A DNA stretch of 64,000 bases, taken from assembly GCA_016390365.1 (NCBI GenBank), contig GCA_016390365.1_3043.1. The stretch is one strand, 5' to 3'. The position numbers and the translations under genes were made by a program. The notes beneath the pieces were generated by a model. The model saw nothing but the letters and a program-made list of their open reading frames with translations, was not told where the DNA came from and searched no databases. Positions 3,837 through 48,602 of the stretch are shown here, one piece after another; position 1 is the first letter of the stretch, and every line of letters starts with the position of its first letter. Source of the stretch: a phage.

Positions 3837-4430
3837 ATGAACACACTGAAGAAAATTGTTGAGTTTATTCGCACTAAACTTGGTTCTGCTATGGCTAAAA
3901 ATCTATCTGTTGAAGAGCAGTATACCGCTGCGGCAGCAAAACTACTTGATAAGATTAAAGACCTAAAAACTGCTTCCGTTAAATCTATTAATGAAGAAAA
4001 ACGTATTCGTGAACTTATTGTCGAAAAGAATCGACAAGCCGAATCAAAAGAGCGCGAAATTCGCAAGCTTCTTTCCGAAGGTCAAGATGTAACAATGCAT
4101 GCTAAACTCGGTTTACTATATCGTCGAACAGCTGAGCAGTTGACTACTAAGGCTGACGGTTATGCTGAAATGCGAATTGAAATCGCCAAGAAAGTAGTTG
4201 AGTTAGATGATGCTCGTCAAGAACTTGCGGTTAAATTGGAATATATCCGTGAAACTCGTGCAGCAAATGCCCTTGGAATTAGTACTGCCGATGATGTAGT
4301 TGAAATTGCAGCACTGACTAAGGTTGATATTGAAGATACCCTTGCTCGAGTTGAAACCTTTAACGGTAATATTTCTGGGGTTGAAACTACCTCTGCCGAT
4401 GTTCAGGAATACATTAATTCTCTGAAATAA
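3837..4430 (+). CDS. hypothetical coiled-coil protein
   Basis: AGGA RBS; heptad-rich Lys/Glu/Ala sequence. Confidence 0.55.
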
Positions 4431-33911: not shown

Positions 33912-35114
33912 ATGAAAGTATGTATTTTTATGGCTCGAGGTCTTGAAGGTTGTGGTGTAACAAAATTCTCACTCGAGCAACGTGATTGGTTTATTAAAAA
34001 TGGTCATGAAGTGACTTTGGTTTATGCTAAAGATAAATCATTTACTCGTAATTGCGCGCATGATTATAAATCATTTTCAATTCCGGTTTTATTGGCAAAA
34101 GAATATGATAAAACACTTAAGCTGGTAAATGATTGTGATATTCTAATTATCAATTCAGTTCCTGCTACTTCGGTTGAAGAAGACACGATTAATAACTATA
34201 AAAAAATTATTGATAACATTAAACCTTCTGTTCGTGTTGTAGTTTATCAACATGACCATTCTTCTCTTTCTTTGCGTCGAAATTTGGGATTAGAAGAAAC
34301 TGTTCGTCGAGCTGATGTTATTTTTAGCCATTCTGATAATGGTGATTTTAATAAAGTTCTGATGAAAGAATGGTATCCTGAAACAGTTTCTCTGTTTGAT
34401 GATATTGAAGAAGCACCGACAGTATATAACTTTCAGCCTCCTATGGATATTGCGAAGGTTCGGTCAACCTACTGGAAAGATGTTTCTGAAATTAACATGA
34501 ATATCAACCGTTGGATTGGTCGTACGACCACATGGAAAGGTTTTTATCAGATGTTTGATTTTCATGAAAAACATCTTAAACCTGCAGGACTAAGTACTAT
34601 TATGGAAGGTCTGGAACGTTCTCCAGCGTTCATTCCTATTAAAGAAAAAGGAATTCCATACGAGTATTATCGTCTTCATCAAGTAGACCAAATTAAAATT
34701 GCTCCTAATTTGCCAACGCAAATTCTTGACCGTTATGTAAATAGCGAAATGCTTGAACGTATGAGTAAATCCGGTTTTGGTTATCAGTTGAGTAAGTTGG
34801 ATAAAAAATATCTACAACGTTCTTTAGAATATACTCATCTCGAGCTTGGTGCATGTGGAACAATTCCGGTATTTTGGAAATCTACTGGCGAAAATTTAAA
34901 ATTCCGTGTTGATAATACTCCTTTGACCTCGCATGATAGCGGTATCATTTGGTTTGATGAAAATGACATGGAATCAACATTTGAACGTATTAAAGAACTG
35001 TCATCTGACCGAACTCTTTATGACCGCGAACGCGAAAAAGCTTATGAATTTTTGTATCAGCATCAAGATTCAAGCTTCTGCTTTAAAGAACAGTTTGACA
35101 TTATTACAAAATAA
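33912..35114 (+). CDS. agt: DNA alpha-glucosyltransferase
   Basis: 400 aa; near-identical to T4 alpha-gt as I recall (FMARGLEGCGVTKFSLEQRDWFIKNGHEVTLVYAKDKSF...). Confidence 0.9.
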   Translation: MKVCIFMARGLEGCGVTKFSLEQRDWFIKNGHEVTLVYAKDKSFTRNCAHDYKSFSIPVLLAKEYDKTLKLVNDCDILIINSVPATSVEEDTINNYKKIIDNIKPSVRVVVYQHDHSSLSLRRNLGLEETVRRADVIFSHSDNGDFNKVLMKEWYPETVSLFDDIEEAPTVYNFQPPMDIAKVRSTYWKDVSEINMNINRWIGRTTTWKGFYQMFDFHEKHLKPAGLSTIMEGLERSPAFIPIKEKGIPYEYYRLHQVDQIKIAPNLPTQILDRYVNSEMLERMSKSGFGYQLSKLDKKYLQRSLEYTHLELGACGTIPVFWKSTGENLKFRVDNTPLTSHDSGIIWFDENDMESTFERIKELSSDRTLYDREREKAYEFLYQHQDSSFCFKEQFDIITK

Positions 35115-45358: not shown

Positions 45359-45610
45359 ATGGAAACTTTAGTAGCAGGTTCAATTTTTATGGTTTTAGTT
45401 TCAGGTGTGTTGGCTATTATTATATACATGCTTCCATGGTTCATCGCCTTGATGCGTGGGTCAAAATCAACAGTAGGAATCTTTTTCACGTCTTTACTGT
45501 TTAACTGGTCAATTATTGGTTGGTTTATTACATTTATTTGGTCAATTGCGGGTGAAACTAAAAAGTCTGCACAACCAAATCAGGTAATTATCATCAGAGA
45601 GAAGGAATGA
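45359..45610 (+). CDS. imm: superinfection immunity membrane protein
   Basis: 83 aa, two hydrophobic helices; located between genes 43 and 42 as in T4. Confidence 0.65.
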   Translation: METLVAGSIFMVLVSGVLAIIIYMLPWFIALMRGSKSTVGIFFTSLLFNWSIIGWFITFIWSIAGETKKSAQPNQVIIIREKE

Positions 45611-45756
45611 AAAGCAAAATTATAACAGTGTTGCTTTTAATCTTGATGATTATAATAAGTATATACTATAGTGTAACGGTTCCTCTTATGATTCCAACTA
45701 TTATTTTAGGTTGGAGCTTATTACTGTTACAAGTTAAATATGAATGTATCAATTGA
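45607..45756 (+). CDS. 49-aa membrane peptide
   Basis: ATGA overlap with imm; hydrophobic. Confidence 0.35.
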   Translation: MKSKIITVLLLILMIIISIYYSVTVPLMIPTIILGWSLLLLQVKYECIN

Positions 45757-45763
45757 GGTTTAA

Positions 45764-46504
45764 ATGATTAGTGACTCTATGACAGTTGAAGAAATCCGTC
45801 TTCATTTGGGGCTTGCATTAAAAGAAAAAGATTTCGTAGTTGATAAAACCGGTGTTAAAACTATTGAAATTATTGGCGCATCATTTGTAGCAGATGAACC
45901 GTTTATTTTTGGCGCTCTTAATGATGAATACATTCAGCGCGAACTTGAATGGTATAAATCTAAGAGCTTGTTTGTTAAAGATATTCCAGGTGAAACACCA
46001 AAGATTTGGCAGCAGGTAGCATCTTCTAAAGGCGAAATTAACTCGAATTATGGTTGGGCTATTTGGTCAGAAGATAACTATGCCCAGTATGATATGTGTT
46101 TAGCTGAACTTGGTCAAAATCCTGATTCTCGGCGTGGTATCATGATTTATACTCGTCCATCCATGCAATTTGACTACAATAAAGATGGTATGTCAGATTT
46201 CATGTGTACTAATACAGTACAGTACCTGATTCGTGATAAGAAAGTCAATGCAGTAGTAAGCATGCGCTCAAATGACGTGGTCTTCGGATTCCGTAATGAT
46301 TATGCATGGCAAAAATATGTATTAGATAAATTAGTATCTGATTTGAATGCAGGCGATTCAACTCGTCAGTATAAAGCAGGTTCTATTATATGGAATGTTG
46401 GAAGTCTTCATGTATATTCTCGTCATTTTTACTTGGTTGATCATTGGTGGAATACTGGCGAAACTCATATTGTGAAAAAAGATTATAACGGTGAGTGGAA
46501 ATGA
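45764..46504 (+). CDS. 42: dCMP hydroxymethylase
   Basis: 246 aa; thymidylate-synthase-like fold, matches T4 gp42. Confidence 0.9.
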   Translation: MISDSMTVEEIRLHLGLALKEKDFVVDKTGVKTIEIIGASFVADEPFIFGALNDEYIQRELEWYKSKSLFVKDIPGETPKIWQQVASSKGEINSNYGWAIWSEDNYAQYDMCLAELGQNPDSRRGIMIYTRPSMQFDYNKDGMSDFMCTNTVQYLIRDKKVNAVVSMRSNDVVFGFRNDYAWQKYVLDKLVSDLNAGDSTRQYKAGSIIWNVGSLHVYSRHFYLVDHWWNTGETHIVKKDYNGEWK

Positions 46505-47343
46505 TTCAATTCGTAATTCCAAGCTATCAACGTGTAGGGGCAGTTTCTGCCCTTGATATGTTTCCGACTGATTATGAACCTCATATCGTAGTACGTGAAC
46601 ATGAAGAAAAAGCTTATTATGATGCCTATGGGTCTAGAGCTAAAATTATAACTATTCCTGATGATGTAAACGGAATTGCCGGTACTCGTAAAGCAATTAC
46701 TGATATGTATGCAGGTCAACGAATCTGGATGATTGACGATGATACTACTATTCGTATGAGTTTAATGCGAAAAAGAGATGACCGTCGTTGTGTAGATAAA
46801 GTCAATCAATTGACTCGTGAACAGTTCTATGAATTGATTCAATATGTTGAGGATGCCATGGATTGCGGGTATTATCATGGCCATGCTCGTCTACCAATTT
46901 TTAAAATTACTTCATCTTGGGGTAATTATCGTGAAAATTCATATGGATTTACGAATACATGGTATGACCTCGGAAAACTTACGACAGAACAAATTGGGTA
47001 TGGAAAAATTGATTTATGCGAAGATATGTATGCATTTCTCAATTTAATTAATCAAGGTTATCCGCATTTGGCCTTGTTCAAATATCTGGTTGTATCTGGA
47101 AAAGCACAAGCTCCTGGCGGGTGTAGTTCAATTCGTAGTAATTCTAAACATAATAGAGCGCTTGAGCAAATCAATAGAGAGTTTCCAGAGCAAGCTCGTT
47201 GGAAAACTTCTAATATCGAAAAACGAAAATCGTTGGGTGAAGAAGACGAGCCATTAAAGGTTCTTCGCATGTGTGTTTCGCGCAAAGAAAAATCAGAAGC
47301 ATTTCATAAGTTTAATGCTATTCATCCGATAGCAGTTGATTAA
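46501..47343 (+). CDS. GT-A-type glycosyltransferase at the beta-gt locus (not T4 beta-gt)
   Basis: ATG 46501 overlaps gene 42 stop; DxD-type motif IWMIDDDTTI; 280 aa, unlike the 351-aa T4 beta-gt. Confidence 0.55.
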   Translation: MIQFVIPSYQRVGAVSALDMFPTDYEPHIVVREHEEKAYYDAYGSRAKIITIPDDVNGIAGTRKAITDMYAGQRIWMIDDDTTIRMSLMRKRDDRRCVDKVNQLTREQFYELIQYVEDAMDCGYYHGHARLPIFKITSSWGNYRENSYGFTNTWYDLGKLTTEQIGYGKIDLCEDMYAFLNLINQGYPHLALFKYLVVSGKAQAPGGCSSIRSNSKHNRALEQINREFPEQARWKTSNIEKRKSLGEEDEPLKVLRMCVSRKEKSEAFHKFNAIHPIAVD

Positions 47344-47420
47344 TGCCTAAATTTATTGTGTTATAATTACTCTATCTTTAACCAGTGAGGAAAATATAAT
47401 GATGCCTATGGAAAAAATGA

Positions 47421-48602
47421 ATGTCTATTGCAGATTTAAAATCCCGTTTGATTAAAGCTTCCACTTCTAAAATGACTGCTGAACTGACTACATCTAAATT
47501 CTTTAATGAAAAGGATGTAATTCGTACAAAAATTCCAATGCTTAATATTGCTATTTCTGGTGCGATTGATGGCGGCATGCAGTCTGGTTTAACTATTTTC
47601 GCAGGGCCTTCTAAACACTTTAAATCAAATATGTCTTTGACTATGGTTGCGGCGTATTTGAACAAATATCCTGACGCGGTTTGTCTATTCTATGATAGTG
47701 AATTTGGTATTACTCCAGCTTATTTGCGATCCATGGGAGTTGACCCGGAACGAGTAATTCATACGCCAATCCAGTCAGTTGAACAGCTGAAAATTGATAT
47801 GGTGAATCAGCTTGAAGCTATTGAGCGCGGTGAAAAAGTTATTGTATTCATCGACTCAATTGGTAATATGGCTTCTAAGAAAGAAACGGAAGATGCCTTG
47901 AATGAAAAATCTGTGGCAGATATGACTCGTGCTAAATCACTGAAGTCATTATTCCGTATTGTTACTCCTTACTTTAGCATTAAAAATATTCCATGTGTTG
48001 CGGTTAACCATACAATTGAAACAATTGAAATGTTTAGTAAAACCGTGATGACAGGTGGTACAGGCGTAATGTATTCGGCTGATACCGTATTCATTATCGG
48101 TAAGCGTCAGATTAAAGATGGTTCTGATCTTCAGGGGTATCAATTTGTTCTAAATGTAGAAAAATCTCGTACCGTTAAAGAAAAAAGTAAATTCTTTATT
48201 GATGTTAAATTTGACGGTGGTATCGATCCTTATTCTGGATTGTTAGATATGGCTCTAGAATTAGGATTTGTAGTAAAACCTAAAAATGGCTGGTATGCTC
48301 GTGAATTTCTTGACGAAGAAACCGGCGAGATGATTCGCGAAGAAAAATCTTGGCGTGCAAAAGATACTAACTGCACTACATTCTGGGGTCCTTTATTTAA
48401 GCATCAACCATTCCGAGATGCTATTAAACGTGCTTATCAGTTAGGTGCTATTGATAGTAATGAAATTGTTGAAGCTGAAGTCGATGAATTGATTAACTCA
48501 AAGGTTGAAAAATTTAAATCTCCAGAAAGTAAAAGTAAATCAGCTGCTGATTTAGAAACTGACCTCGAGCAGTTAAGTGATATGGAAGAATTTAATGAAT
48601 AA
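47421..48602 (+). CDS. uvsX: RecA-like recombinase UvsX
   Basis: 393 aa; near-identical to T4 UvsX through the C-terminus ...LETDLEQLSDMEEFNE. Confidence 0.95.
   Translation: MSIADLKSRLIKASTSKMTAELTTSKFFNEKDVIRTKIPMLNIAISGAIDGGMQSGLTIFAGPSKHFKSNMSLTMVAAYLNKYPDAVCLFYDSEFGITPAYLRSMGVDPERVIHTPIQSVEQLKIDMVNQLEAIERGEKVIVFIDSIGNMASKKETEDALNEKSVADMTRAKSLKSLFRIVTPYFSIKNIPCVAVNHTIETIEMFSKTVMTGGTGVMYSADTVFIIGKRQIKDGSDLQGYQFVLNVEKSRTVKEKSKFFIDVKFDGGIDPYSGLLDMALELGFVVKPKNGWYAREFLDEETGEMIREEKSWRAKDTNCTTFWGPLFKHQPFRDAIKRAYQLGAIDSNEIVEAEVDELINSKVEKFKSPESKSKSAADLETDLEQLSDMEEFNE

Follow-up and report, generated by a model that had tools for sequence, protein, structure and literature searches.

Gene content of the locus

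The window analysed here is a 64-kb stretch of phage DNA. Between gene 42 and uvsX, it carries ba-gt (ggt; 46501..47343, + strand), which encodes a 280-aa beta-glucosyl-HMC-alpha-glucosyltransferase of the TAGT family with a predicted GT-A fold. Read from the sequence, the ORF begins at ATG 46501 and ends with the stop codon at 47341-47343, and its ATG overlaps the stop codon of gene 42 in an ATGA. The upstream gene 42 (45764..46504, +; PF00303) encodes dCMP hydroxymethylase, the source of the hmC precursor, and is so annotated in T2, T4, and T6. The downstream gene is the uvsX recombinase (47421..48602, +; PF21134/PF00154). A preliminary description had placed a 280-aa ORF at 46501-47343 between these two genes, and both the ORF and the Pfam matches of its neighbors bear this out. 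The mechanical ORF list opens ba-gt two codons earlier, at GTG 46495 (282 aa); this start was dropped because the annotated relatives (T2, Solly, QOTSP, NR1, RB14, and Bas36) all use ATG 46501.

The acceptor pathway is encoded in the same window. Besides gene 42, the DNA alpha-glucosyltransferase gene alpha-gt, whose product makes the alpha-glucosyl-hmC acceptor, was found at 33912..35114 (+). As previously described, it is intact: the 400-aa ORF covers positions 1-354 of the 355 in the PF11440 profile (E = 4e-237). When the whole 64-kb window was searched by tblastn with T4 beta-gt and segA, only chance matches were obtained (E > 1). The window thus combines gene 42 and alpha-gt with ba-gt and has no T4-type beta-gt. 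In T4, the segA homing endonuclease gene adjoins beta-gt, whereas none lies between ba-gt and uvsX in the window. The locus comparison showed the gene 42, ba-gt, uvsX layout in T2, T6, QOTSP, and NR1 as well.

A promoter and terminator scan of positions 45500-47600 returned 14 sites against 10.4 +/- 3.5 in shuffled sequence, which is not above expectation. The single terminator-like hairpin, at 46535-46555 inside the ba-gt coding sequence, was given no meaning (1 against 1.3 by chance).

Two observations concern the neighboring annotation. Gene 42 is often named 'thymidylate synthase' in public records. Between imm and gene 42, we noted a very hydrophobic 49-aa ORF (MKSKIITVLLLILMIIISIYY...; 45607-45756, +), whose ATG overlaps the imm stop codon. 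T4 and T2 have an almost identical nucleotide sequence there, and the ORF is annotated in QOTSP and NR1 but not in the T4 RefSeq, T2, and T6 records examined.

Protein comparison with the T2, T6, and T4 enzymes

The products of the ba-gt genes of T2 and T6 correspond to UniProt Q06717 and Q06718, as cited in PMC6024577. The preliminary description had proposed, from synteny, that the window gene encodes the T2/T6-type enzyme that adds the second glucose. The T2/T6 genes were reportedly first cloned by Winkler and Rueger in 1993. We compared the window protein directly with the T2 and T6 enzymes. The comparison gave 277 of 280 identical residues with T2 ggt (99%), 275 of 280 with the T6 protein of AP018814 (98%), and 257 of 261 with the annotated T6 protein of MH550421 (98%). 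The protein also matched phrog_842, 'beta-glucosyl-HMC-alpha-glucosyltransferase' (6e-89). The assignment by synteny is thereby confirmed through direct protein comparison with T2 and T6. The shared features extend to the length of 280 aa, the slot between gene 42 and uvsX, the ATGA overlap with gene 42, and the co-occurring alpha-gt. We therefore read the window gene, with a probability of about 0.94, as the orthologue of T2/T6 ba-gt, the enzyme that adds a second glucose onto alpha-glucosyl-hmC to give gentiobiosyl-hmC.

The only Pfam match of the protein was PF20691, the TET-associated glycosyltransferase family (TAGT), a sister group of GT2 with a GT-A fold; the score of 38.8 bits exceeds the gathering cut-off of 27.5 bits. 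The match is full length, with residues 3-207 aligned to profile positions 2-205 of 205. The window protein further resembles this family in its GT-A model and its invariant DDD. It differs from it in two respects: its partner at the nucleotide level is a thymidylate-synthase-type hydroxymethylase (gene 42), not a TET/JBP dioxygenase, and its acceptor would be a sugar already on the DNA. The TAGT family is broad, and it includes homologues of undefined function that occur with beta-gt or without any alpha- or beta-gt (PMC13216743); the Pfam match taken alone is modest (E = 1.3e-9). Both points leave some room for a TAGT transferase of other specificity, which would use another sugar or another linkage, or act directly on hmC, and would make no gentiobiose. 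However, the identity of 98-99% to the T2/T6 enzymes, together with a single-residue difference from enzymes whose phages have been measured to contain gentiobiosyl-hmC (PMC13390438), makes this extremely unlikely.

In T4, beta-gt (PF09198) takes the place that ba-gt has here, downstream of gene 42. T4 beta-gt and ba-gt both use UDP-glucose as donor, and both form a new bond of beta stereochemistry. They differ in fold, GT-B for T4 beta-gt and GT-A for the window protein, and in acceptor, which is bare hmC for the T4 enzyme and alpha-glucosyl-hmC for ba-gt. No sequence similarity between the two was detected by BLASTP (best E = 2.3), in agreement with the earlier remark that the window protein did not resemble T4 beta-gt.

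During the comparison, we noted that both public T6 records carry a lesion in ba-gt, and a different one in each, though T6 is the textbook high-gentiobiose phage. In MH550421 (locus 3950-3980, minus strand; window equivalent 46525-46530), codon 10 is an in-frame TAG, whereas the window has CAA (Gln) there. Because of this amber codon, its coding sequence is annotated from Met20, and the annotated protein loses the conserved strand at its N terminus, and with it the invariant I6-P7-S8-Y9 and R11. Among 414 matching phage records, the amber-bearing stretch of 71 nt was 100% identical only in MH550421, so the mutation looks stock-specific. AP018814/NC_054907 (locus 1147-1155; window 46735-46743) has lost 3 nt, in frame, from GAC-GAT-GAT, which reduces DDD to DD and the protein to 279 aa.

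Fold, conserved residues, and sequence variants

The family alignment comprised 10 sequences, the window protein and nine homologues from the databases, down to 32% identity. D79-D80-D81 (46735..46743, +), a DxD-type nucleotide-sugar/metal-binding motif, was invariant. It lies within IWMIDDDTTI, a motif reported earlier from the sequence and located here at residues 75-84. In the 'CEDMY' segment, D175 of E174-D175 (47020..47025, +) was invariant and E174 nearly so. The other invariant residues were the N-terminal I6-P7-S8-Y9, R11, and G206-G207.

A PDB sequence search returned no solved relative of the ba-gt family (best E = 1.5, spurious), and the evidence for the fold therefore rests on a predicted model. 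The model is a single Rossmann-like nucleotide-sugar domain that matches GT2-type GT-A structures. The DDD motif follows the strand at residues 74-77, as expected for a DxD motif after beta-4. The earlier guess of a GT-A enzyme with a DxD motif agrees with both the model and the alignment. Segments 126-151 and 194-211 were modeled with low confidence (pLDDT < 50), so the details of the active site are not secure. By analogy with GT-A enzymes in general, we infer that DDD would bind metal and UDP. E174-D175 could plausibly correspond to the 'ED' motif of GT2 enzymes and is, as such, a candidate for the catalytic base.

The 12-kb neighborhood of ba-gt is about 98% identical to JK38, QOTSP, JK1, Solly, and NR1, with 97.6-97.9% for the Durham phages Solly, QOTSP, and NR1. 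Over 1 kb, the locus is 99.8% identical to vB_EcoM_G29, G4500, UTI-E2, and the BASEL phages Paracelsus (Bas36) and WilhelmHis, and 99.5% identical to RB14. At the protein level, S88L is the sole difference from Solly, RB14, and Bas36; QOTSP and NR1 differ at residue 88 and also at residue 24 (D24N in QOTSP and NR1). Three residues separate the window protein from T2, namely R11 (T2 H), L88 (T2 S), and P251 (T2 S), and four or five separate it from T6. The exact protein was found on two public contigs only, one from NCBI and one from Logan; the NCBI copy, on a 165,981-bp contig, is MBJ0221249.1, 'hypothetical protein [Escherichia coli]'. The window appears to belong to a complete Tequatrovirus genome that was submitted as part of an E. 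coli assembly rather than as a phage record.

Codon 88 (46762..46764, +) is TTA (Leu) in the window and TCA (Ser) in T2, T6, Solly, QOTSP, NR1, BGP, RB14, and Bas36. As all eight compared relatives carry Ser, L88 reflects a single-base change private to this isolate. It sits seven residues past the DDD motif. With Leu in none of these relatives and the exact protein confined to two contigs, one might suppose that S88L has weakened or inactivated the enzyme in this isolate, which would leave its DNA mostly mono-alpha-glucosyl-hmC, with a T2-like or lower gentiobiose content. Laboratory stocks do gain ba-gt lesions, as the amber codon 10 of T6 MH550421 and the DDD to DD deletion of T6 AP018814 illustrate. 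We regard this loss of function as improbable, however, since column 88 is variable (S, Y, or E) in homologues of 48-77% identity, although Leu occurs in none of those compared, and since the reading frame is intact and every invariant residue is kept. A broader form of the idea seems a similarly long shot: S88L might alter activity or acceptor handling, so that mono- and di-glucosylated hmC would occur in unusual proportions and the phage would respond differently to Brig1/GmrSD-type defenses, and ba-gt variation in general (R11H in T2, S88L here, and the T6-stock lesions) might tune gentiobiosylation across the T-even phages.

The T2 protein has His at position 11 (window 46531-46533) in all three T2 records examined. 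R11 was invariant in the 10-sequence alignment and is also present in T6, Solly, QOTSP, NR1, BGP, RB14, and Bas36. R11H is a candidate that could contribute to the low gentiobiosylation of T2 (5%) relative to T6 (72%).

Distribution of ba-gt and expected DNA modification

By tblastn, ba-gt matches were found in 689 of 50,697 phage records, 685 of them nearly full length. The matching records comprised 473 with at least 90% identity, from T-even phages of Escherichia, Shigella, Yersinia, and Salmonella, and about 200 further ones at 60-80% identity, from Klebsiella, Enterobacter, and Citrobacter relatives. Most 'RB' phages have been tabulated as carrying alpha-gt and ba-gt (PMC6024577). In the vast majority of genomes surveyed in PMC13216743, alpha-GT or beta-GT is paired with TAGT, and alpha-GT with beta-GT occurs in only 6 of 753 genomes, those of T4 and its close kin. 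The combination of alpha-gt and ba-gt is the common Tequatrovirus state, and this wide distribution, together with the six alpha-GT/beta-GT genomes (PMC13216743), makes T4, and not the present genome, the exception at the locus. The preliminary description was right that a non-T4 enzyme occupies the beta-gt slot, but its presentation as a different occupant does not hold in the sense of anything unusual.

The gene and its product have been described before, as have the fold class, the genomic position, and the distribution. The public names for ba-gt are nevertheless inconsistent and include 'hypothetical protein', 'glucosyl transferase', 'beta-glucosyltransferase' (also 'putative'), 'alpha-glucosyl-transferase', and 'glycosyltransferase like family 2'; a clean assignment is therefore useful housekeeping. 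With respect to reported phage 'contingency loci', the available portion of one account names agt and makes no mention of ba-gt (bioRxiv 10.1101/2025.10.21.683753).

The DNA of T2 and T6 contains beta-1,6-glucosyl-alpha-glucosyl (gentiobiosyl) hmC, formed by ba-gt after alpha-gt, at a level of 5% in T2 and 72% in T6 (PMC6024577; PMC13216743). PMC13216743 credits this chemistry to Lehman and Pratt 1960, Kornberg et al. 1961, and Kuno and Lehman 1962. The DNA of Solly, QOTSP, and NR1, analysed by HPLC-MS, was about one third 5-hmdC and two thirds alpha-5-gentiobiosyl-methyl-dC; alpha-glucosyl-hmC was present in trace amounts, and beta-glucosyl-hmC was absent (PMC13390438). For T6, the proof is genetic: without ba-gt, the phage reportedly has alpha-glucosyl-hmC only, and its sensitivity to the Brig1 glycosylase is increased both in vivo and in vitro (PMC11078745).

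In the present phage, gene 42 would supply hmdCMP and thereby hmC in the replicated DNA, and alpha-gt would glucosylate most of the hmC in alpha linkage. From UDP-glucose, ba-gt would then add a second glucose by a beta-1,6 bond to the alpha-glucose and so form gentiobiosyl-hmC. Going from an alpha-linked donor to a beta-linked product, the reaction would invert the configuration, in keeping with a GT2-like fold that has DxD (D79-D81) and ED (E174-D175) motifs. The disaccharide may shield the DNA from defenses that recognize mono-alpha-glucosyl-hmC, for example the Brig1 glycosylase.

Because R11 is present as in the high-gentiobiose phages, and because the protein differs from that of Solly at one variable position, we expect from the sequence a T6-like level of about two thirds gentiobiosyl-hmC rather than the T2-like 5%, with the private L88 as a caveat; this level is a prediction. 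The gene content has predictive value: a T-even phage with alpha-gt and ba-gt and without beta-gt should carry mostly gentiobiosyl-hmC. This state determines how sensitive a phage is to type IV restriction that depends on glucose and to defenses based on DNA glycosylases, which is relevant to the choice of therapeutic phages.
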